64,000 bases of DNA from contig OZ245003.1 of NCBI GenBank assembly GCA_965223425.1, positions 512,001 to 576,000 of the forward strand. Reading direction: 5' to 3'. Made by a program: the position numbers and the translations under genes. Of this stretch, positions 43,389 to 59,566 are shown piece after piece (within the stretch, counting starts at the first letter, position 1; each line of letters starts with the position of its first letter). This DNA is from Nitrosopumilus sp. Its GTDB lineage: Archaea > Thermoproteota > Nitrososphaeria > Nitrososphaerales > Nitrosopumilaceae. The notes under the pieces are model-generated. The model was not told where the DNA came from. It ran no database searches and was given only the letters and a program-made list of their open reading frames with translations.

Positions 43389-44359
43389 ATGAACCAACAA
43401 TGACTGACATGCGTTCAGAATATTCTAAATCTTTGATTCAAATTGGAAAAGAAAATCCAAACGTCGTTGTTTTAGGTGCTGATACCACTGATTCCCTAAA
43501 GACTTCGGGTTTTGGCAAAGAATTTCATGAAAGATTCTTCAATGTAGGTATTGCTGAGGGAAATTTAGTTACTGTCTCTGCTGGATTGGCAGCCTCAGGA
43601 AAAATTTCTTTTGCAAGTACCTATGCAATATTTCTGCCAGGAAGAGCAGTCGATCAAATTCGAAACAACATTGCATATCCCTCACCGCCAGGAAAAAAAG
43701 GACTTGATGTGAAACTGGTCGTTTCTCATGGGGGTTTATCTGTTGGACCTGACGGTGGCTCGCATCAACAAATTGAAGACATTGCAATAATGAGGGCCAT
43801 TCCAAATTTCCGAGTTTTCATTCCAGCTGATACCGTTGCTGTTTCTAAACTGACTCGTTTAATGGCAAATGAGTATGGCCCGTTTTACATGAGAATGGCA
43901 AGATCAAAGACACCCTTAGTTCATCCAGAATCTCAAGATTTTCAAATTGGAAAAGGCATTACACTAAGAGATGGCTCTGATTGCACAATTGTTTCATGTG
44001 GAATCACTGTTCGCATGGCTTTAGAGGCAGCTGAATCGTTACAACAGGAAGGAATCTCATGTAGAGTTTTGGACATGTTTTCAATCAAACCGATTGACAA
44101 TGAACTTTTAGAAAAAGCTGCAAGAGAAACGGGGTGTATAGTTACTACTGAAGAGCATAATATTTTTGGCGGCATGGGCTCTGCAGTTGCAGAGTCTGTT
44201 TCTGAATCATACCCTGTACCAATGAAACGAATTGGTGCCCAAGACATGTTTGGAGAGTCTGCCAGAGATAAGGAGGTTCCTTTACTCTTAGAAAAGCATG
44301 GCATAACATCTTTTAATATGGCAAAACAAGTTAAAGAGCTTAGGAGTAAAAAACTATGA
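43385..44359 (+). CDS. Transketolase C-terminal subunit
   Basis: RFFNVGIAE, GPDGGSHQ, EEHNIFGGMGSAV. Confidence 0.93.
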   Translation: MNEPTMTDMRSEYSKSLIQIGKENPNVVVLGADTTDSLKTSGFGKEFHERFFNVGIAEGNLVTVSAGLAASGKISFASTYAIFLPGRAVDQIRNNIAYPSPPGKKGLDVKLVVSHGGLSVGPDGGSHQQIEDIAIMRAIPNFRVFIPADTVAVSKLTRLMANEYGPFYMRMARSKTPLVHPESQDFQIGKGITLRDGSDCTIVSCGITVRMALEAAESLQQEGISCRVLDMFSIKPIDNELLEKAARETGCIVTTEEHNIFGGMGSAVAESVSESYPVPMKRIGAQDMFGESARDKEVPLLLEKHGITSFNMAKQVKELRSKKL

Positions 44360-45021
44360 AGATTTTTCTTGACACTGCAAATCTAGAATCTATTAAAAAA
44401 TTTAATGATATGGGACTACTAGACGGAATTACAACTAATCCCTCTTTGCTGTCTAAAGAACAGGGCAATCCCAAAGATGCAATGGAAGAGATTACAAAAA
44501 TTATCAAGGGCGATGTAAGTCTTGAAGTCGTAAGTACAGAATATTCTGGAATGATGGAAGAAGGAAAACGCCTTCGTGAATATGGGGATAATGTTGTCGT
44601 TAAAGTTCCTATGACTTCTGATGGTTTGAAAGCGTGTAAATCGCTTTCATCAGAAGGCGTTCCTGTTAATGTTACTCTGATATTTTCTCCAAACCAAGCT
44701 TTACTTGCCGCAAAGTCTGGTGCGAAATATGTCAGTCCATTTATTGGACGGCTAGATGATATTGGACAAGACGGCATGCATTTAATTAAAGAAATTAAAG
44801 AAATATTTTCTAATTATAATTTCGGAACTGAGATACTTGTAGCAAGTGTTCGTCATCCGGTACATGTAGTTGATGCTGCAAAAATTGGGGCAGATGTAGT
44901 GACTCTCCCTCCTGCCGTCTTAGATAAGATGCTACAGCACCCATTGACAAAAACTGGCTTGGAAAACTTCCTTGCTGATTGGGAAAAGCTGAAATCCGGA
45001 AATCCTGATGTCAAAATCTAG
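44356..45021 (+). CDS. tal: Transaldolase / fructose-6-phosphate aldolase
   Basis: IFLDTAN, GITTNPSL, VVKVP, SPFIGRLDD. Confidence 0.94.
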   Translation: MKIFLDTANLESIKKFNDMGLLDGITTNPSLLSKEQGNPKDAMEEITKIIKGDVSLEVVSTEYSGMMEEGKRLREYGDNVVVKVPMTSDGLKACKSLSSEGVPVNVTLIFSPNQALLAAKSGAKYVSPFIGRLDDIGQDGMHLIKEIKEIFSNYNFGTEILVASVRHPVHVVDAAKIGADVVTLPPAVLDKMLQHPLTKTGLENFLADWEKLKSGNPDVKI

Positions 45022-45078
45022 TAACTTTGGATGATACCATCTAAGAAAATCTTAAAAATGAAAAATTGAGTTACTTTT

Positions 45079-45333
45079 CTAGGACTTTTTTCTAGAAGCA
45101 GTTCCTCTGCCTGAAACTCTAGTTCCTGTGTATTTTGGTCTCTGTTTTGGTTCAGGGGTGTCGCTTAATTTTCTTCTGCCAGTTCCTCTGCCAGATGAGA
45201 CATATGTCCCCTTGGCTGCGTGTTTTCTTGCTTCTTGAATTTTCTTAAATTCTGAACCAGTCCATTTTGAGGCATCGCTATCGACCTCGATAGTTCCTGT
45301 ACCTCTTCCGGTTCGTATTTTTATTTTGACCAT
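45079..45333 (-). CDS. Small basic protein with three GRGT motifs
   Basis: 84 aa, K/R-rich; TGRGTG, SGRGTG, SGRGTA. Confidence 0.7.
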   Translation of the reverse strand: MVKIKIRTGRGTGTIEVDSDASKWTGSEFKKIQEARKHAAKGTYVSSGRGTGRRKLSDTPEPKQRPKYTGTRVSGRGTASRKKS

Positions 45334-45357
45334 AAATTAGGTTGAATCTGCTTGTAT

Positions 45358-46377
45358 TTAACTACTAATCCATCCAAGCTTTTTGAAATACGCAAACATA
45401 ATGATTGCTGGAATTGCAGATGCAAGAATAATAATTATGAAAGTTGTAAGCGATCCCAAAAACATAGAATCGTCCCCGATCGCAGGTAAGTTGACGTTCA
45501 TTCCATAAAACGTTCCAATTACAGTTGATGGGATTGCCAGTGTGAAGATAATGGTTAGTAAGCCAAGTACTTTGTTTGTCTTTTCAGTACTTAACACAAA
45601 GTCTGTGTCTTTATAAATTTCCATAGTTTCTCTTGATTCCTCTAGTGTTTCAATTACTTTGTCTATGTGATCAATCACATCATCAAAATATAATGCAAGT
45701 TCTTCATCCTCTCTTTCTGAAAATCTTTCAACATTTTTTGCAATCTCTAAAACAAATTTCTTTAATGGATTGGCTATTCTTCTTAGCCTGTTAATTTCCC
45801 TTCTAAGTAGGGCAATACTTCTTGCTACTGGTTTTGCCTCATCAAACACTCTGTCCTCCATTTCATCCAAATTTGCAATAATCTTTCTAGAAGTATGTAG
45901 AAGATCATCTACAAGCACATCTATAATTTCATGAAGCAATGATCCAGAAGATTCTCCTAACAACCTGTCTTTTTTTTGCTGGTCTGAACCTGTTTTGCAT
46001 ATTTCTGCTAACTCTACCAGGGGCTTTAGATCTCCTTGGTGTACTGTAACTATGATATCCTTGCCAAGAAATATGGATAGCTGACTGTTTTTTGATATTC
46101 CTATTTTTTGTGCTAATGGCGGGAAATGTAGAATTACAAAGAAATGATCATTATAGCTATCCAATTTTGGAAGTTCAAATTTAGTCATACAGTCTTCAAT
46201 GTTTAATTCATTAAAATTGAATTTTTCAGCTAATTTCTCAACATCATTTCTGTCTGGATTTTGTAAATTCATCCATGTGAATTTCTCTCCTTGAATGGTC
46301 TCAATTTTCCTTTCAATGGAATCCTCTATTGATTTTCTACCTGAACGCAATCTTTTGGTGATGAATCCTTTTCTCAA
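45358..46377 (-). CDS. corA: CorA Mg/Co transporter
   Basis: YGMNV signature after the first TM helix. Confidence 0.92.
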   Translation of the reverse strand: MRKGFITKRLRSGRKSIEDSIERKIETIQGEKFTWMNLQNPDRNDVEKLAEKFNFNELNIEDCMTKFELPKLDSYNDHFFVILHFPPLAQKIGISKNSQLSIFLGKDIIVTVHQGDLKPLVELAEICKTGSDQQKKDRLLGESSGSLLHEIIDVLVDDLLHTSRKIIANLDEMEDRVFDEAKPVARSIALLRREINRLRRIANPLKKFVLEIAKNVERFSEREDEELALYFDDVIDHIDKVIETLEESRETMEIYKDTDFVLSTEKTNKVLGLLTIIFTLAIPSTVIGTFYGMNVNLPAIGDDSMFLGSLTTFIIIILASAIPAIIMFAYFKKLGWISS

Positions 46378-46481
46378 GTCGAAAAGTACCCTAATACAGC
46401 AAATTTAAAGCGATCGTTATCGCTGTATGTAAAAATTATTGTCAAGTTGTAAAATTAAAAAATGCTCTTGAATTGAGGCTG

Positions 46482-46562
46482 CTACTTAAATGGAAGCAAA
46501 TAATTCATTCCAACCCATGTTAATCCAATGGATATTGCCATTGCAAGCCACCAATACCTCAT
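46482..46562 (-). CDS. Putative 26-aa single-TM microprotein
   Basis: MRYWWLAMAISIGLTWVGMNYLLPFK; intergenic, with AT-rich upstream sequence. Confidence 0.4.
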   Translation of the reverse strand: MRYWWLAMAISIGLTWVGMNYLLPFK

Positions 46563-46653
46563 ACTTGAAATCCCAACTGGTTGATAATAAATCTAGTCTA
46601 ACCCTCATCAAAAGTTAAAGATTATTACAGGATAAACAGTTTTTCTTTTTTGT

Positions 46654-46726
46654 GGCCTTCGTAGTACAGTGGTTAGTATAGAGGATTGTGGATCCTCGGA
46701 CAGGAGTTCGATTCCCCTCGAAGGCC
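46654..46726 (+). tRNA. tRNA-His(GUG) with encoded G-1
   Basis: G-GCCTTCG/CGAAGGC-C; anticodon arm GAGGA-TT GTG GA-TCCTC. Confidence 0.93.
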
Positions 46727-46980
46727 CTCTTAGTTTACTTTAAGATCACACATGTGTATGTGCTGCTTATGAATCTGAAACTTTGCTCAACTGGCCTTAT
46801 GATTATGATTCTTTACTAGCCAATGTTTCCACTTGAACCTGTTTTGAACATCAAAAGGGAATTATAAAATTAATTCAAGACTCTAGCAGTTAGTCCGGCA
46901 GACTTGAACGTATTTACTGGTTAATTGGATGCCAAATAGACACGAATTCTAATATCTCATAACAAATCATCATTGTTGTG

Positions 46981-47470
46981 GTGAGCCAATCAGTAGTTAT
47001 TGGAATTGCCATTGGGTATTTTTTGCAGGATTAGTAGTAGGTATTGCAATTTTTCAGGCTTTGGATCAACTAATTCAAACTACAAATAAAGAATTAGAAA
47101 GACACAAGATGGCAGAACAACTTGCAGTACAACATCTTGAAACATTTGATGAGTTAGATTTTGATGTTTTTACAGATTAGAAATGGGAAAGATTACATGA
47201 AAGCCACTCACAGGATATTGTAGTACACTGGCCAGATGGACAGACTACAGAAGACATTGAACCTCACATTGAGGATTTGAAAGCTATGTTTGATGGTCAC
47301 CAGATACTAGAATAGAACAACATTCAACCAAATAGCATCAGGACAATGGACAAAGTGATTGGAGTTATTGAGGGCGCATTTACAGAACCTATACCATTAC
47401 CAGATGGAACTTCAATTCCACCAACTGGAAAATCTTACAAACTTACAATGACTACAGTTACCGAATATTG
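46981..47470 (+). pseudogene. SnoaL-like ester cyclase pseudogene
   Basis: HLETFDELDFDVFTD*KWERLHESHSQDIVVHWPDG...PDGTSIPPTGKSYKL; TAG at 47178 plus frameshifts. Confidence 0.75.
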
Positions 47471-47491
47471 GCTGTCATGAAAGTCTAGTTT

Positions 47492-47995
47492 TTATTTTCG
47501 AACTCTCAATTTTGCTTTTTTTAATGCAATAATTCCAGGTATTATGAAGGCCATTCCATAACTAATTTCCACCAAGCTACTAATCAATATTATCCAGTCA
47601 TTTTCTTGTTCAAGTTGTTCAAGAATTAATACGGACTGAAGACCACCCAGTATTAAAGGAGAACCAAAAAATATCAAAACTCCTGCAGCTATAATGAGCA
47701 TATATTTTCTAGTTGGGATTTTTTTTACTCTCAAAATTATATTTGATACAATAAATATCAGCGAGATAACTCCCAACATAATTGGCCCTGCAACAAATAT
47801 TGAATTAAACGCTAAGAGCATTCCAGGAAAATCACGTGCATAACTAGGAGACAAGTCTGAATCAAGATCAACTGCACCTCCACCATAATCTGTATCTGAT
47901 TCTAATCTCAAGTTTATCGAATATACAAAAGCAGTAAAAATAACCAAGGATAAAAAAATACAAAATGCAATTATTGTTAAAAATTTAATTTTCAT
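47492..47995 (-). CDS. Four-TM hypothetical membrane protein (cassette)
   Basis: MKIKFLTII start; hydrophobic segments; junction motif at both ends. Confidence 0.75.
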   Translation of the reverse strand: MKIKFLTIIAFCIFLSLVIFTAFVYSINLRLESDTDYGGGAVDLDSDLSPSYARDFPGMLLAFNSIFVAGPIMLGVISLIFIVSNIILRVKKIPTRKYMLIIAAGVLIFFGSPLILGGLQSVLILEQLEQENDWIILISSLVEISYGMAFIIPGIIALKKAKLRVRK

Positions 47996-48446
47996 TTTCT
48001 AACTCCATAGAAGTTCGTTTTTCAAAAATAATACCTACACATTCCTCAAATTTTTCTGTAGATACTTCATCAGGTAATCCCACATCGTTAATAATATAAA
48101 ATCCATCAAATTCTTCATCAAGTAAATTAGAATATCTGGTGAGATGTTCAAGTATTAGCTGGTTGCATCCAAGGCTATATAGGTCATTTTGGTTGCACCA
48201 TTCTTGACAGTAATCCTGATCGGTAATCTATTGAGAATCTGTTTCATTATCCTGTATTTCTGGATGCCAAAGAATTTCAAAATATTTCTGAATTTCATAT
48301 GTTACATATGGACCACATCCGCCATGTGAACCCAACGAACTAGGAGTTGGGCCGTCAACTAAAATACATACACCATGACCAGTAACCCCTATCCAACTTA
48401 CAAAAATTAAAGAAATTACAATTATTATTTTGATTCTTGTTTTCAT
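47985..48446 (-). pseudogene. Secreted Cys-containing protein interrupted by one in-frame TAG (48228-48230)
   Basis: Frame continues ITDQDYCQEWC...MELENEN* to 47985, overlapping the next start. Confidence 0.7.
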
Positions 48447-48449
48447 TTT

Positions 48450-48575
48450 CTATGTTCCCCAGAAAAAATCCCAAAAACCAAGAAGTTTACTGCAATGTTT
48501 ACACCTTATTTGACCATTAATTTCAATAAAAGAATGAAAGATACCAATTTCGCACAAAAATTTAGCTAGACTCAT
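48450..48575 (-). CDS. 41-aa putative Zn-binding microprotein
   Basis: MSLAKFLCEIGIFH...RCKHC; its stop lies directly at a cassette junction. Confidence 0.5.
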   Translation of the reverse strand: MSLAKFLCEIGIFHSFIEINGQIRCKHCSKLLGFWDFFWGT

Positions 48576-48920
48576 GCTGTTTCGTTTGAATATATCCTTA
48601 TAACAAATTCTACTCTTGAATTCAAGTTTGAGATTCAGACATATGTGTTATAGTTGGCTCACAGGCCCCTCATTGTTGTAAAATTTCAACTGTTTGTTTG
48701 ACATCTCCACCTGAATCTGCATATGCCTTTAATTTGATTTGTTGAATAGTCATCAGCATTCTTTCCAATCTCAACAATTTTGACAGTCAAAAATTCTCGC
48801 TCAATACAAATATCTAAAAGTTTTTCAGTCTTTTTCATCCCTTCAACCGTAGGCTGTAATTGAGACAATGCAGTGATTACAGGATTCTTGATTTATTTGA
48901 GGTCCCGTTAAACCAAATGG

Positions 48921-49310
48921 CTAATCATAATATTCATCAACAAAACAGTCTTTTTCTGAAAGATATGATAATACATTTTCTCTAACTGTGTATTGGCTTT
49001 GGATTCCATTGGGAGTGCAATGGAGAAAAATATTTGATGGAATGCCAAACTGATATGTTATCTTTAGCACTACCCATTGATCTTCTGACAGACCAGATTG
49101 AAATCCAATTTGATACGAATATGCTCCATCTGGGAATACCAAGACACCATAATGGCCATATTTTTCATAAAACATGTTGACTTCGGGGATTTGTTTTAGT
49201 TCTTCGACATGATTACCTGGCCAATCATCATATGGTTTTATTCTTACAGTAAATACAAGAATTACTATTACAAAAACAATTGCAATTATTATCAAAAATC
49301 TAGTCTTCAT
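48921..49310 (-). CDS. Hypothetical protein with N-terminal signal or anchor (cassette)
   Basis: MKTRFLIIIAIVFVIV. Confidence 0.8.
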   Translation of the reverse strand: MKTRFLIIIAIVFVIVILVFTVRIKPYDDWPGNHVEELKQIPEVNMFYEKYGHYGVLVFPDGAYSYQIGFQSGLSEDQWVVLKITYQFGIPSNIFLHCTPNGIQSQYTVRENVLSYLSEKDCFVDEYYD

Positions 49311-50350
49311 TTTCTTTTTCTCAAAAAAATCATTAAACCAAAAAAAGAACCCGTACCAATTACTATTGCAATAACTATTGTACTTGGGTAAAATCCAGAT
49401 TCCTGAAATATGGGAGTTTCAGAACCAAATTCCATACCAGGAGCATATTTGTAATCACATAATTTTCGATTATCATACCAAGTTCCATCTAACTTGTCAC
49501 ACTCGGATTTATTATTTACCAAAAGAATACCTGTTTGAATATCATAATTTCCTATTCTTTCACATTGATCGTTTTGTATCATACCAGAACCTCCCCGACA
49601 TAATGGTTTTTCATATTCATCTAATTTAGCATGTTGTGTTTGAGATTCATTAATTATTCTTGAAAAATTAACATTTGATTTATGTTCAGCATATACGGCA
49701 TCTTCTACTAAAAGTCTAGTACCTCTTGATTCATCCGTTATTGTAAAGAAAACTTTTGATTCAAAAATTCCACTAGCATTATCAGTTTCAGACATTGTTA
49801 GCTGTATGCCATTATGATCAATATCGGACCACACATGAATATCAAAAGAATCTATTTTTTTGTCATCTAGGTTCATATATTTATCAATTATTCTAACAAT
49901 ACCCGCATCAGTTGACAAATAGTTATGTTTATCCCACTTTATTTTTACCCCGTCATCAATTGGCGCAAGCCATTTATCACAAAGAGAATCATCTCGATGG
50001 TTTTCAAAGCTGGATATGGTTTGAGAATCTACCCATTTGACCATTCTATATTGTTTCATACCATCTACCACAAACTCTGTACAAATTATTGCAGGCAATT
50101 GTAATTCTACATCTTCACTATCCCAGTTTCTATCAGACATTTGCCAATCCCCATAGTTGAACTCAATGTTCCTGGCGTAATTTTCCATAATTGATTTTTC
50201 AGTAAGGGGAGGATCAGTAACTACAGAAAAAGAGTCAAAGCACGGTCCTGCAGTTCCAAATAATGGAGCAGCGCAAGATGCATAGGAGTATGGAATTGCT
50301 GCAAATCCAATCATTACAACTACAAGTAATATTGAAAGTCTAGTTTTCAT
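49307..50350 (-). CDS. Secreted protein with a C-terminal membrane anchor (cassette)
   Basis: MKTRLSILL..SYA signal peptide; C-terminal TM helix plus RKRK. Confidence 0.82.
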   Translation of the reverse strand: MKTRLSILLVVVMIGFAAIPYSYASCAAPLFGTAGPCFDSFSVVTDPPLTEKSIMENYARNIEFNYGDWQMSDRNWDSEDVELQLPAIICTEFVVDGMKQYRMVKWVDSQTISSFENHRDDSLCDKWLAPIDDGVKIKWDKHNYLSTDAGIVRIIDKYMNLDDKKIDSFDIHVWSDIDHNGIQLTMSETDNASGIFESKVFFTITDESRGTRLLVEDAVYAEHKSNVNFSRIINESQTQHAKLDEYEKPLCRGGSGMIQNDQCERIGNYDIQTGILLVNNKSECDKLDGTWYDNRKLCDYKYAPGMEFGSETPIFQESGFYPSTIVIAIVIGTGSFFGLMIFLRKRK

Positions 50351-50673
50351 TTTACCAATCTTGGATTAAATCGGTTTTTTGAGGAATAGTATTCAAACAT
50401 GGATTCTGATACAATATTTTCACATTCAACTCTAATTGTATAATAACCGTTTTCAAACATGGCCCGTCCTCCACAGGCAAATATAAAAGTCTCAGTTTCA
50501 TCAGGAGTTGTCTTTAGTATTGTTGAATCAATTTTACGACTAGTGGGACCATGAATACTAAGAGTTGCAGCATTTACAAAATGATGATTAAACCATACAT
50601 GAATTTTTATTTCATCGTCATCAGCGTAAAATTGTTTATCAATTGAGATTACAATTCTAGAATCTTCTTTCAT
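50347..50673 (-). CDS. Hypothetical protein, possibly Ig-like beta-sandwich (cassette)
   Basis: IDKQFY..DD.I.I...GYYTIRV pattern; ATGA overlap. Confidence 0.65.
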   Translation of the reverse strand: MKEDSRIVISIDKQFYADDDEIKIHVWFNHHFVNAATLSIHGPTSRKIDSTILKTTPDETETFIFACGGRAMFENGYYTIRVECENIVSESMFEYYSSKNRFNPRLVK

Positions 50674-50864
50674 TTTCTCTTATCCCAAATTATAATTCCA
50701 GAAATTATTGTACAGGGGATCTTTTTGAATTTGAATCATTCTTATCGTCATCACCATCTAATTTCCTTGATCGTGGCACATAAGATTACGCCCATAACTA
50801 TGCCCAAAATTGTAAGGGTCTTGAATTAATTTGACAAGTCACCTCGAGGGCCTTTTCATTTTAA

Positions 50865-51212
50865 TTAAAAAATACCAAATTTGCTAGACTCCATTTCTTC
50901 TTTAATGGCAAGTCTGAACCGTGGAGACTTGTTTTCTGTATTCTTGGCTAACCAAGAAAGAAATTTTTTTTCCATTCCCTTTCCCTTCAGTCTATCAAAA
51001 TCTGCTCCCATCATCTCTGCTAACTTTTCAACCAATGATCTGTTTACGCTTAACACAAAAAAATGCCAGCCAAAAGCAAATTCCGAATCAGTCATCACAA
51101 AGTCTTCTTGACCGTGGACCATTTCTTCTAAAAGGGATAATTGACGCGTCAGCGCTTTGCTTGTTTTGTCATAATCCACTGCAGATACATTGATGTTGAT
51201 TCTCCCATCCAT
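50865..51212 (-). CDS. Hypothetical protein
   Basis: 115-aa ORF in the housekeeping gene run. Confidence 0.75.
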   Translation of the reverse strand: MDGRININVSAVDYDKTSKALTRQLSLLEEMVHGQEDFVMTDSEFAFGWHFFVLSVNRSLVEKLAEMMGADFDRLKGKGMEKKFLSWLAKNTENKSPRFRLAIKEEMESSKFGIF

Positions 51213-51243
51213 GATTTTTTCACGTCAAAACAAAATAAAAGGC

Positions 51244-52014
51244 TTATACTTGTTCCTCTTTCAAAAGATGTTCAAAATCTATGTCAAAATGCATTTTCAT
51301 TATGTTGATATACGTTTGAATTGATTCCGGAATTTCTTCACCACATGCTACCCCTAATTTTTTTGCGTTAATCCAAATTACCAGCGTTTGTATAATTGTT
51401 AAAAATCTATCGTTGCCAATCTCTGGGGATCCGATAGATTTTGTGTATCTTTCAGCAAACTCCCATGCTGTTACAAAATCTACGCATTTTACACCAAAAA
51501 CTGCTAGTAACTGCTCCTGCATACTTGATGCCTTTTTGAATGGTATTTTGTTGATAATATATGGGAAATCTACCTTGTCTGGAATGCAATCTGGAAGCGG
51601 CCCCCAAATTGTAATTACTTTTGTCTCTGGTTTTAGTTTTTCAAATTTTTCCAACATCTGATTAATTATGTCCCCATCTGTAAACCAAAACAAAATTACT
51701 GAGGCATCTGACAAGTCTGATTCTTCAATATTTTCACAGATTAACTGTCCTTGAATGTTTTTCTCTTCAAGACTTTCTTTTGCAAGTTGGATTTTTTTAG
51801 GATTATTGTCTATCCCTACAGCTTTTTTTACTTTGAACTGGTTTACTGCCATCTCAATTCCTTTTTCATTACCACAGCCCAAATGATAGAAAATGTCTGC
51901 CTCCCCTAAATTTACAAATTTAAAAATTTCATTAAATGCCTTTTCTGGCAGCTGAACATCCTCTCCACTAAGCAAGTTTTTTGGAAGCGTTTCCAAATAT
52001 TCCTCAATTTTCAA
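51244..52014 (-). CDS. SAM-dependent methyltransferase-like protein
   Basis: FYHLGCG, AVGIDNN. Confidence 0.8.
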   Translation of the reverse strand: MKIEEYLETLPKNLLSGEDVQLPEKAFNEIFKFVNLGEADIFYHLGCGNEKGIEMAVNQFKVKKAVGIDNNPKKIQLAKESLEEKNIQGQLICENIEESDLSDASVILFWFTDGDIINQMLEKFEKLKPETKVITIWGPLPDCIPDKVDFPYIINKIPFKKASSMQEQLLAVFGVKCVDFVTAWEFAERYTKSIGSPEIGNDRFLTIIQTLVIWINAKKLGVACGEEIPESIQTYINIMKMHFDIDFEHLLKEEQV

Positions 52015-52039
52015 TAATGTTCTTCTTACCTGGGAGGAT

Positions 52040-52309
52040 TTATTCTCTTATGCTTTCTAGTTTTGAAACTGCTTGCCATAACTGTGTCCGTACGTATGAA
52101 GGCATGTTCGGATCTTGCGTTACATCGTCTAACAGACTAATTGTATTTGCAGCTCTTACTGATAGAGAATATTCTTCATTATTCAAATCTGCAACCAGGT
52201 CTGTAATTGATTTTTTTATTGTTTTTGGAGTAGAATTGCTTGAAGCAATTTGATTTAATGTTTCAATTGCTTCTTTCATAGATTCTTTATTTCGAGTTTC
52301 ATCTACCAT
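52040..52309 (-). CDS. UPF0147 family protein
   Basis: VRAANTISLLDDVTQDPNMPSYVRTQLW. Confidence 0.88.
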   Translation of the reverse strand: MVDETRNKESMKEAIETLNQIASSNSTPKTIKKSITDLVADLNNEEYSLSVRAANTISLLDDVTQDPNMPSYVRTQLWQAVSKLESIRE

Positions 52310-52345
52310 TTTTTCCACCTTTTCTTAAAAATTAGAAGTATATAG

Positions 52346-52654
52346 TTACATCTCTAGAAATACAGTATCTGATTCTATTACGATGCTATACGATGTCAAA
52401 TCTCTAATTTTTGCTGGGAATTTAACCAGGTTTCCTGTTTTACAATCAAACTGAGCTCCATGCCAACCGCATGTAACTGTGCATCCATCCAATTTCCCTT
52501 CAGAGAGACTTGCTCCTGAATGCGTACAAGAGTCATCTGTTGCATAGTATTCACCGTCAATATTTGCCACTAGGACATCTCGGCCATCAATGGATGCCTT
52601 TATCATTTTTCCAGGTGTAATATCTGATGTTTTACCAACGATCACTTTTCCCAT
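52346..52654 (-). CDS. Rieske 2Fe-2S ferredoxin
   Basis: CTH...CGWHGAQFD. Confidence 0.92.
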   Translation of the reverse strand: MGKVIVGKTSDITPGKMIKASIDGRDVLVANIDGEYYATDDSCTHSGASLSEGKLDGCTVTCGWHGAQFDCKTGNLVKFPAKIRDLTSYSIVIESDTVFLEM

Positions 52655-52705
52655 GACAGTTTTTATCTGATAATTCTTAATATTTTTTTGTATAGGGCGA
52701 ATGTG

Positions 52706-53485
52706 ATGATTAGAGATGCAACTGCTTTAGATAAAATTCCAATCTTGAAATTTTGTAGGGACACTTTTTCTTGGGGTGACTATGTGGATCAGGTTTGGGA
52801 TTTTTGGCTATCTGAGGGTCATTTGTTACTGTTTGAAAAAGAATCCCCCGTTGGAATGTGTCATGCCCTTTACACAGATGATCAAATCTGGATTGAAGGA
52901 ATAAGAATTGATCCTAATTTTCGAAGACAAAAGATTGCATCTGAATTAATAAAACATGCCGAATCAATAGGAAGAAACAAGTCTATTTCATTTTCCCATA
53001 TGCTAATTGATACTAAAAATACTTCATCCCTCTCTTTGGCCTCATCCCTAGATTATGATATTTTTCAAACTTGGAATTTTTACTCTCTCAAACCAAAAAA
53101 GAATTTGAACTATGATGATATTCAATTTGAAAAATCCCTTGATCCTCAACTCTATTCCCACTATGTAAAATCTTGGAGATGGCTTCCTATTGATGATTCT
53201 GCCTTGTCTGCATTTTATGAGCAAAACCAAATTGTAAAATCTTGTCTAGACGGCAATGCCTCAGTTGGAATCCTTACTGATTCTGAACATTTTGATAGTA
53301 CACTCATTGTTACATTGTTCTCAGGCTCACAAAATACCACACTACAAATAATTTCATTTTTACAAAATTATGGGTTTGAAAATAATTATGAACGAATACA
53401 AATTTTAACCAGAGAGAAACTGTCAATTTTTGATTCAGTGGAACACAGATTTTCATTTCATCTTATGAAAAAATCCTTAGACTAG
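52706..53485 (+). CDS. GNAT acetyltransferase
   Basis: WIEGIRIDPNFRRQKIA. Confidence 0.85.
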   Translation: MIRDATALDKIPILKFCRDTFSWGDYVDQVWDFWLSEGHLLLFEKESPVGMCHALYTDDQIWIEGIRIDPNFRRQKIASELIKHAESIGRNKSISFSHMLIDTKNTSSLSLASSLDYDIFQTWNFYSLKPKKNLNYDDIQFEKSLDPQLYSHYVKSWRWLPIDDSALSAFYEQNQIVKSCLDGNASVGILTDSEHFDSTLIVTLFSGSQNTTLQIISFLQNYGFENNYERIQILTREKLSIFDSVEHRFSFHLMKKSLD

Positions 53486-58534: not shown

Positions 58535-59566
58535 ATGTCTACTATTTTGAACAAATCCCGAAGCAAGAAGAGTATTGAGGAAAAGATACAGACAAAATCC
58601 AGTGGCACGCAAAAGAACTTTCAAGTGATAATAAAGAACTTTGAGGACTTTTGTATGGAAAAATATCACCTCTCATGTGATGGTATTATTGCAGAATATG
58701 CAAAGGTTGATGATAATCAGATATATGATTCCTTGCAGGACTGGATAAACTGGAACCATAACAGAGGAGTTCACTCTAACACCCTGCCCATGTGGTTCTC
58801 TTATCTGAAGAAATATCTGAGATACAGGGGGATAAAGATCATAGCCGAAGATGCCCGAGACAATATTGACTTTCCACATAAGATAAAGGAGGAGAAATAT
58901 CCGTTGACACGAGGGGAGATCAGAAAGATACTCGATACTTGCAGTAGCAAGAACAGGTTTAGGATAATGGCACAAATTTCAAGCGGGCTGAGGCGTGGAG
59001 AGCTGCTACGACTACGAAAAAAGGATCTTGATGTGACAACAGAGAGGATTACAATAAATGTTCCTGCACAGATTACCAAAACAAAAAAATCACGGATTAC
59101 CTTTTTCAGCATGGAAACCCAAGATATGATAATTGGCATGTTACATGGCCTAAATGATGATGACTTTGTATTTGGAAGCAAGAATGGCAGAAATCAGTAT
59201 ACTGGAAGCTCATATCAAAAGGCACTAGTCAACTGTCTGGAAAAGATTGGCTTTGACCAAAAATATTCTTCTGGAACCCACAAAATATCAACTCACAGCT
59301 TCAGGGCATTTTTCATAACCAAGGTGTCACGACATGATCCAAATCTTGCCAAATACTTTGCAGGACAGGAACAGACAGGAGATCTGTTAATGTATGACAG
59401 GCTTACACTTGATGAGAAATTACAGAGATATATCGAATTTGAGACTGACTTGCTGATTTTTGATGAGAAAAAAGAGACCTTACAGGAAAGAGAGATTGCA
59501 CAACTCAGAACAGAAGTTGAAACGTTGAGGGAATTTAAAAAAAATTCGTTAAAAGAGGAATCATGA
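58535..59566 (+). CDS. Tyrosine recombinase/integrase
   Basis: SSGLRRGELLRL, TKTKKSR, HSFRAFF, C-terminal Y (LMYDR). Confidence 0.92.
   Translation: MSTILNKSRSKKSIEEKIQTKSSGTQKNFQVIIKNFEDFCMEKYHLSCDGIIAEYAKVDDNQIYDSLQDWINWNHNRGVHSNTLPMWFSYLKKYLRYRGIKIIAEDARDNIDFPHKIKEEKYPLTRGEIRKILDTCSSKNRFRIMAQISSGLRRGELLRLRKKDLDVTTERITINVPAQITKTKKSRITFFSMETQDMIIGMLHGLNDDDFVFGSKNGRNQYTGSSYQKALVNCLEKIGFDQKYSSGTHKISTHSFRAFFITKVSRHDPNLAKYFAGQEQTGDLLMYDRLTLDEKLQRYIEFETDLLIFDEKKETLQEREIAQLRTEVETLREFKKNSLKEES

Follow-up and report, generated by a model that had tools for sequence, protein, structure and literature searches.

Results

Genes and boundaries of the array

A run of minus-strand genes, here called A to E, joined by one recurring DNA junction lies beside a tRNA-His gene of Nitrosopumilus sp., within positions 46655-50853 of the window, by which is meant the whole 64-kb stretch of DNA analysed (contig OZ245003.1, positions 512,001 to 576,000 of the forward strand). 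The features of the locus are collected in Table 1. The source genome (2.64 Mb) is referred to as G000, other G numbers denote the genomes compared and L numbers the stretches examined. An earlier note on the same DNA had described the run as a chain of mutually dissimilar genes with variants of a common motif at six boundaries, comparable in function to an integron.

The window was searched with the 15-mer AAAATGAAAACTAGA, allowing up to two mismatches. Six matches were found where 0.54 were expected, and none of 100 shuffled sequences reached six. Five of the six lie on the minus strand at gene boundaries named in the earlier note. At the remaining boundary, 50673, only AGAAAATGAAA is held in common with the motif and the 15-mer has 6 mismatches, so that the claim of six motif-bearing boundaries stands for five and 50673 is a weak member. 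The sixth window match (AAAATGAAAAATTGA, 45055-45069, plus strand) is flanked by two conserved genes and starts a frame of only 3 codons; it is kept in G020 and G021 and has no relation to the arrays.

A repeat search grouped the four working junctions into one 54-nucleotide (nt) direct-repeat family with 61-72% identity. The same search paired 47478-47498 with 50333-50353 as a 21-nt repeat of 95% identity, in agreement with the 20 of 21 identical positions counted previously between the last junction and the one at 50350. No inverted-repeat arms or hairpin potential were found at the junctions in the repeat search of the window. As previously described, no gene follows the last junction, where the frame soon stops; this remnant still supplies the stop (TAA) of gene E. 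The chain is not one of six intact genes, since gene D contains an in-frame TAG, the GT* end is supplied by a 41-codon open reading frame (ORF) and a gap of 470 nt separates genes C and D.

Table 1 Features of the tRNA-His locus, with positions counted in the window (aa, amino acids; att, attachment site; positions with a sign are counted from the start codon).
Feature	Position	Strand	Remarks
tRNA-His (GTG)	46655-46727	+	ARAGORN; Rfam RF00005, 59.9 bits; variable islet starts directly after
Left direct-repeat copy, att-like, tRNA 3' end	46713-46727	+	CCCCTCGAAGGCC
Left arm of islet-bracketing inverted repeat	46859-46891	+	Core AAATTAATTCAAGACTCT; 33 nt, 79% complementary to 50808-50840
Broken convergent ORF	46995-47483	+	From translation; two in-frame TAG, 3' end cut short
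Remnant junction	47478-47498	-	21-nt repeat; ATA for ATG, then IKTRLS and stop (6-codon frame)
Motif site	47484-47498	-	1 mismatch to AAAATGAAAACTAGA: ATA replaces ATG
Gene E	47492-47995	-	167 aa, several hydrophobic helices; starts MKIKFL, ends LRVRK
Motif site	47984-47998	-	2 mismatches to AAAATGAAAACTAGA
Junction D/E	47984-48000	-	AGAAAATGAAAATTAAA; D ends ENEN* at TAA, +8..+10 of gene E
Gene D	47990-48446	-	Starts MKTRIKIII; broken by in-frame TAG 48228-48230
Motif site	48435-48449	-	1 mismatch to AAAATGAAAACTAGA
Junction before D	48435-48451	-	TAG at -6..-4 ends the 41-codon ORF
41-codon ORF	48450-48575	-	Supplies the GT* end
Gene C	48921-49310	-	129 aa; putative N-terminal membrane anchor MKTRFLIIIAIVF
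Motif site	49299-49313	-	1 mismatch to AAAATGAAAACTAGA
Junction B/C	49299-49315	-	B ends LRKRK* by ATGA overlap
Gene B	49307-50350	-	347 aa; putative signal peptide, ~220-aa conserved core, variable part, C-terminal helix, RKRK tail
Motif site	50339-50353	-	0 mismatches to AAAATGAAAACTAGA
Junction A/B	50339-50355	-	Exact consensus; A ends RLVK* by ATGA overlap
Gene A	50347-50673	-	108 aa, no hydrophobic N-terminus, first gene of the run; only AGAAAATGAAA shared with the junction
Partial copy of a dispersed repeat	50712-50792		blastn of the window stretch against the genome; 17 other places in G000
Right arm of islet-bracketing inverted repeat	50808-50840	-	Same end seen in the 55-kb island of G021
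Right direct-repeat copy, tRNA 3' end	50841-50853	+	CACCTCGAGGGCC; similarity to relatives resumes here

Searches of genes A-E against Pfam and NCBIfam returned nothing above cut-off, gene E giving only weak Pfam matches below it. The mature parts of B, C, D and E fall into different BLAST clusters and A is separate, so the genes are indeed mutually dissimilar. Gene B has 145 relatives at E ≤ 0.001, all unnamed or labelled 'hypothetical', from sources that name Nitrosopumilus and Nitrosarchaeum. The family is characterized by a conserved core of ~220 residues, a variable tail and a transmembrane-plus-WRKRK end. No usable fold was obtained for gene B from a structure predicted on a 20-sequence alignment (mean predicted local distance difference test score 58.6, predicted template modelling score 0.31). 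The homologue of gene A in G023 is an internal array gene placed after a ...WRKRK* gene, and the homologue of gene C in G017 has 217 amino acids, with similarity that stops near codon 125. Gene D is intact in G017 (152 amino acids), with TGG at the position of the TAG.

Anatomy of the junction

The conserved core of the junction extends from -5 to +21 (~26 nt) and comprises AGAAA, the ATG, the MKTR codons and the start of a hydrophobic leader. Across 66 array genes, conservation starts at -10 (G in 61%) and AGAAA is present at -5..-1 in 76-97%. ATG AAA ACT AGA is conserved, and third codon positions are kept to about codon 8; beyond it only second positions are kept, which corresponds to hydrophobic residues. 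The leader of the 66 genes consists of MKTR followed by at least 70% hydrophobic or small residues at positions 5-22. Ala-x-Ala-like sites were recognized by eye in several leaders, for example SYA/S in gene B.

All three reading frames are closed by the core within 17 nt: by TAG at -6..-4, by TGA in ATGA and by TAG across ACT-AGA. These built-in stops end 48 of the 66 upstream genes (20 by TGA, 17 at +8..+10 and 11 by TAG at -6..-4), and those at +8..+10 are TAG in 16 cases and TAA in one. The +8..+10 stop position was found in 17/66 gene pairs at junctions versus 1/227 other gene pairs in the same stretches. The motif therefore supplies both stop and start, as had been proposed, and does so for upstream genes in all three frames. 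Within the run the RK* end arises by ATGA overlap, ENEN* at +8..+10 and GT* at the TAG before AAAATG. The ENEN* C-terminus results from reading the junction in another frame, and proteins that end in RKRK* have a C-terminal helix and a basic tail.

A plainer role, not weighed in the earlier note, is that of an A-rich, weakly folded translation start, often with GGAG ~10 nt upstream. A GGAG-type site at -18..-5 was present in 34/64 family genes versus 23/152 first or isolated genes, and the 3' end of the 16S rRNA carries the matching CCUCC. Mean folding energy over -20..+20 was -1.9 kcal/mol, versus -3.7 and -3.2 kcal/mol in two comparison sets, with an A fraction of 0.46. Separately, ~20 copies of a repeat in G000 (e.g. 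contig 1 near 253042 and 352736) contain a string matching the 16S 3' end word.

In the whole of G000 there are 38 motif matches at ≤2 mismatches and only five at ≤1 mismatch, four of which lie within this 2.9-kb stretch. The fifth near-exact copy, at contig 1 position 250429, is the only other junction in this genome. It belongs to a two-gene mini-locus (contig 1, 250295-250833) in which a 136-amino-acid gene ending WRKRK* overlaps a 43-codon MKTRSLIII ORF, and which adjoins housekeeping genes. Among 137 G000 ORFs with a signal-like N-terminus, three start with MKTR and gene E starts with MKIK, and all four are in the islet. The motif is therefore neither a product of chance nor the general signal peptide of G000, the latter being an explanation that the earlier note had held open.

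Conservation of the junction as DNA

Since the loci had been chosen by means of the motif, codon counts were repeated with codon-blind patterns. The pattern ATGAARACNMGNYTNYTNATH, in which all synonymous codons are allowed, gave 50 matches in 61 genomes versus 1 control match. The Thr codon of these 50 was ACT in 42, ACC in 5, ACA in 3 and ACG in none, against background frequencies of 0.36 for ACT and 0.46 for ACA. CGN was never used for Arg in the same matches (background 0.30). With codon 3 left wholly free, five genomes gave 58 matches versus 2 in the control. Codon 3 was ACT in 44 of these, another Thr codon in none and a non-Thr codon in 14 (AGT 7, ATT 2, and GCT, GCC, AAT, GAT and TGC 1 each). 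The third-position T of this codon, and hence the TAG, was kept in 56/58. The TAG stop is conserved more faithfully than the Thr residue, though only about a quarter of junctions use it. Together with the five non-coding bases before the ATG, these synonymous sites bear out the view that conservation of the motif lies at the level of DNA as well as of protein.

Distribution among relatives

At ≤1 mismatch the 15-mer is present in 99 of 121 genomes of the same genus, at 0 to 46 copies per genome and in clustered positions. The reversed-pattern control gave 0-6 matches. The highest count is that of G021, with 26 forward and 20 reverse matches (46 in all; control 0), and further examples are G126 (12 + 20 = 32; control 1 + 3), G125 (16 + 14 = 30; control 0 + 2) and G097 (19). 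In 150 further genomes of the order, counts rose above the control level only in the sister genus g20, whose genome G247 has 13 matches (7 exact and clustered). The B/C junction of the window has short matches in many relatives.

The matches in same-genus genomes cluster head to tail, and runs of up to six genes or more were seen in the examined stretches. The array genes start with ...AGAAAATGAAAACTAGA and encode MKTR followed by hydrophobic segments of the LLIII or YKII type. Array-first genes (L018, L019, L029 and L032; G021, G126 and G073) have a second conserved start, MKYF, MKYL or MKIF, preceded by an upstream stretch that is conserved and specific to each genome group; it may be a promoter common to these genes or a leaderless start. 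The MKYF/MKIF starts would fit arrays in which the first gene lies next to the promoter and the internal genes are coupled.

The exact 17-mer was also found once each in 32 viral contigs, at the starts of unrelated soluble proteins. In none of these contigs was it followed by a hydrophobic leader or part of an array, and this search revealed no viral origin. A metagenome scan with the intact D homologue returned three loci only (L039-L041), which are too few for a breakpoint census. In these loci the D-type domain (Cys-rich, ...EKFEEC...) lies inside larger array proteins of 269 and 304 amino acids, so that domains, and not only whole genes, would be recombined in arrays.

Cargo and gene order

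The 64 mature array proteins form 30 BLAST clusters. A set of 75 array proteins, made up of the 64 leader-family proteins and 11 array-first genes, was searched with Pfam and gave only 8 families of unrelated folds, including BNR_2, MG2, SNase, CBM_14, GH43 and cupredoxin. No toxin/immunity pairing was found by Pfam in these 75 proteins, which included one SNase and one weak Tli3 match.

Gene order differs between relatives and is not fixed; a fixed order was what the earlier note had named as evidence against exchange. Homologues of B, C and D in G017 lie at another locus and in another order, and in nine genomes no downstream neighbour cluster recurred except c0 followed by c0, which are tandem paralogues. 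The D blocks of G000 and G017 are ~85% identical from -6 of their own start to +11 of the next gene, where similarity collapses; the D homologue is followed by the same junction.

A local variant of the leader was also seen. AGT (Ser) occupies codon 3 in 7 of 21 leaders of G021 and in none of the 37 counted from four other genomes. Of the seven AGT leaders, six lie within 24 kb (869-893 kb) of G021, on both leader types. The genes behind them belong to different families, and their homologues elsewhere carry ACT. The simplest account would be that AGT was spread by short conversion tracts or by copying of the junction, since seven parallel mutations are improbable and the divergent cargo speaks against recent duplication of whole genes.

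The tRNA-His islet

The two direct-repeat copies that flank the islet (46713-46727 and 50841-50853) are alike at 11 of 13 positions, and the tRNA of relatives ends in CCCCTCGAGGGCC. The empty site is represented by G013, G003, G019, G012, G017 and G014, in which tRNA-His abuts a 115-amino-acid gene; here that gene begins at 50865, beyond the 4.1-kb insert. tRNA-His is an insertion hot spot in the genus, with inserts of 2.7, 2.8, 3.5 and 55 kb in G007, G009, G005 and G021. The core of the inverted repeat (AAATTAATTCAAGAC, then T or C, then CT), which may represent an element end or a site bound by an integrase, recurs near tRNA-His in G007, G011 and G005. It also recurs at the right (far) end of the G021 island but not in other arrays. 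The 55-kb island of G021, at the same tRNA, opens with a PF00589 integrase gene (E 6e-11). Some ORFs in that island may be defence genes, judging by their starts.

No integrase was found in the islet by ORF list and Pfam search over 44000-53000, and no tyrosine recombinase stands next to the array in that interval. The nearest PF00589 frame (58535-59566, plus strand, 343 amino acids, 48.8 bits) is 7.7 kb from the islet, in keeping with the earlier statement that none is adjacent. It may encode a chromosome-resolution enzyme or belong to another element. At least 9 PF00589 recombinase frames exceed the cut-off in G000. At the array loci of relatives no recombinase was noticed in the gene tables, of which no systematic Pfam scan was made. 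An Rfam scan of 44000-53000 returned the tRNA and one chance-level match at the B/C junction (E 0.41).

The islet is probably a decayed 4.1-kb integrated element at the 3' end of tRNA-His, with the array as its cargo. It is read as decayed because it lacks an integrase and contains a truncated ORF, the broken gene D, the remnant junction and a fragment of a dispersed repeat. Integration would have taken place at the tRNA 3' end by the ordinary integrase route; short att sites at tRNA 3' ends are described for thaumarchaeal integrated elements in the accessible part of PMC6563490. No tRNA genes were found beside arrays of relatives in 17 of 18 stretches. The tRNA linkage is therefore specific to this locus, and the mobility of the islet and the junction motif are separate matters.

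Three in-frame TAGs (48228-48230 and two in 46995-47483) occur within 1.3 kb, in frames that are otherwise open, and are likewise taken as probable signs of islet decay. Recoding of TAG was considered and rejected, given that 27 of the 48 stops in use at junctions are TAG and that two of the three codons correspond to TGG or Q in relatives. The 46995-47483 ORF is 57-59% identical to intact genes of 179 and 225 amino acids in G023 and G003, in which Q stands at the position of its first in-frame TAG. It matched no Pfam family, and an ester-cyclase-like identity was rejected on that ground. Approximately 75 nt of 50712-50792 match the end of the dispersed repeat, and this fragment resembles the terminus of an insertion sequence or miniature element. 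G000 seems rich in insertion elements, which may account for its 2.6 Mb versus 1.2-2.2 Mb in most relatives.

Discussion

The arrays are probably built on a portable translational-coupling junction with a signal-peptide leader that has been spread and homogenised by homologous recombination. The anatomy and distribution of the junction, its conservation as DNA, the use of its three stops, the unrelated cargo, the shuffled order, the leader variant and the islet borders are observed, and translational coupling, export and exchange between junctions are inferred. The ~26-nt junction would pack together an A-rich spacer behind a frequent GGAG, a start codon, stops in three frames and the first codons of the leader (MKTR, then LLIII/YKII). 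It would head the internal genes of operon-like arrays that encode fast-evolving, mostly uncharacterised proteins, predicted to be secreted or membrane-anchored. By stopping the upstream gene in any frame and restarting translation at once, it would allow any gene to follow any other. With the same 20-50 nt present in every array gene, recombination or short-tract conversion could duplicate, delete, swap and homogenise whole genes unbroken, and a dedicated recombinase need not be assumed.

Several points weigh against this interpretation. The loci were picked by the motif, gene calls followed a naive longest-ATG rule and a regular expression defined the family; the 66-gene profile is therefore partly built in at codons 2-4, which the codon-blind counts correct only in part. 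The T at +8 could be kept by selection on translation or on out-of-frame stops, without DNA exchange, and the leader varies within family B itself (MKTR, MKIR, MKNRYKI). Breakpoints in the motif, as the earlier note had envisaged, are seen in the D block, which ends inside the next junction; the other two of the three, C and B, start at the junction but break off within genes. The compared genomes are of different species with flanks 73-84% identical, so that breakpoints are not placeable to the base, and the 'different neighbours' may in part reflect paralogy, given the loose clusters. Because paralogues and kin are not independent, the counts carry no formal probability. Recombination itself was not observed: the public runs that contain the stretch or part of it (7 rows, 4 studies) are all assembled contigs, and no RNA run is listed among them. 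Four public runs carry the same sequence at low depth, with joints at leaders (e.g. 48453 to 49284 in X5); these joints belong to high-depth contigs of other organisms and are therefore silent on circles, deletions and expression.

A bolder version, to which we give a modest chance and which is offered tentatively, is that the junction is a self-contained gene 'plug' of 17-26 nt, combining a three-frame terminator, a ribosome restart, the start of an export leader and a patch of recombination homology in an integrase-free cassette system. If true, any surface-protein gene could enter an array, leave it or pass to another array or genome in a single step, and the cell surface would be diversified through recombination that needs neither attC sites nor a dedicated enzyme.

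It is unlikely that the pattern arose with no process at the DNA level, that is, from a lineage-specific superfamily or from convergent exported proteins shaped by A+T and codon bias, start selection and an MKxR n-region, with arrays formed by tandem duplication. Selection of this kind would account for A-rich, weakly folded starts with GGAG, for AAA and AGA as the commonest Lys and Arg codons, for the retention of hydrophobicity alone past codon 8, for the varied leaders of family B and for the 17-mer that stands singly before unrelated soluble proteins in the viral contigs. It does not readily account for codon 3, where ACT, which is not the commonest Thr codon, gave way 14 times to non-Thr codons and never to a synonymous one. 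The unrelated folds of the cargo, the AGT variant common to unrelated neighbouring genes in one genome only, the confinement of MKTR starts (with the MKIK of gene E) to one islet among the 137 signal-like ORFs and the excess of +8..+10 stops over other gene pairs also argue against it.

A site-specific cassette system is less likely still. In such a system, which would be integron-like in function, a recombinase encoded elsewhere would recognise the junction, for example by a CTAG-centred core, and move single-gene units. Arrays of unrelated genes packed closely in one orientation, with a single promoter-bearing gene at their head, a near-invariant core of 15-17 nt containing the palindrome CTAG, the shuffled gene order, the D block with junctions at both sides and the PF00589 frames of G000 would all suit it. 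However, the junctions have no inverted-repeat arms or hairpin potential and lie in a weakly folded region, no recombinase adjoins the array, some blocks end within genes, and similarity fades gradually over ~50 nt like that of a coding leader and not with sharp site edges. As a mechanism the integron analogy fails for want of hairpin-forming arms and an adjacent recombinase, and a further point against it is that the whole array lies within a tRNA-integrated islet of ordinary kind. Least probable of all is an RNA signal that co-regulates the array genes, for instance a processing site or a site bound by a small RNA or an RNA-binding protein. Conservation in the non-coding -5..-1 and synonymous sites, with a core near-identical in dozens of genes per genome, would suit such a signal; little structure and the lack of an Rfam family at the junction, where the nearest match is at chance level, speak against it.

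Few cells in the sea are as abundant as those of ammonia-oxidising archaea, whose variable 'dark matter' genes have hardly been characterised at all. The junction is a simple sequence handle by which the genes of a large and rapidly changing set of probable surface proteins can be detected and counted (0 to ~46 per genome), and it points to their organisation as interchangeable units. Should it mediate exchange, archaeal surfaces would be diversified without a dedicated recombinase, which would matter for virus pressure and for recognition between cells. As a translation device alone it would still be a natural universal coupling adaptor that closes all three frames. A literature search found no earlier description of the junction or the leader, though supplementary tables might list these genes.

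The arrays share with integrons the co-oriented arrangement of unrelated genes, a recurring boundary sequence and content that varies between relatives; their internal genes may likewise lack promoters of their own. They differ from integrons in having no IntI beside the array, no attI and no attC hairpins, and in that the repeat is a direct repeat at the 5' end of the gene, part of the coding sequence and of the ribosome start region. The location of the array resembles that of the cryptic integrated elements of Thaumarchaeota, as far as the available text of PMC6563490 describes them, in the tRNA 3' end, the short direct repeat, the absence from relatives and the integrase island at the same site in G021. 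The copy here differs in having no integrase and in its broken genes, and the likeness would explain where the array lies and not the junction motif.

Clusters of small, fast-evolving membrane and secreted proteins also recall the 'dark matter islands' of archaea, for which the accessible portion of PMC4158269 places an uncharacterised membrane-protein group 'expanded in Thaumarchaeota' at the top of its list. No shared junction or leader is described in that portion. Archaeal polymorphic toxin/VARTIG modules are hypervariable, and recombination at short conserved coding motifs has been proposed for them; no comparable module is reported outside Thermococcales in the part of PMC8416519 that is available. 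In comparison with the modules as presented there, the arrays are alike in a large secreted protein followed by variable small genes, and in the MG2 and SNase domains of some array proteins. They are unlike in that no toxin/immunity pair or conserved pre-toxin motif was recognised in them and in that the repeat stands at gene starts and not at a domain border.

By this comparison, we would rate the arrays as belonging among the clustered surface-protein families with conserved 5' ends. In the vlp, vsp and vsa families of Mycoplasma and in the Borrelia families with upstream homology boxes, a conserved 5' region with a signal peptide precedes divergent mature parts in clustered genes, and recombination between the ends is thought to reshuffle them. 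In these bacterial families every gene carries its own promoter and a lipoprotein signal, and in several of them phase variation works by site-specific inversion. The present arrays differ in their operon-like, probably coupled runs, in a conserved piece that also terminates the upstream gene in any frame and in giving no evidence of switching; what they have in common with the bacterial families is a conserved 5' end with a signal peptide (putative in the present arrays), joined to divergent mature parts in clustered genes.

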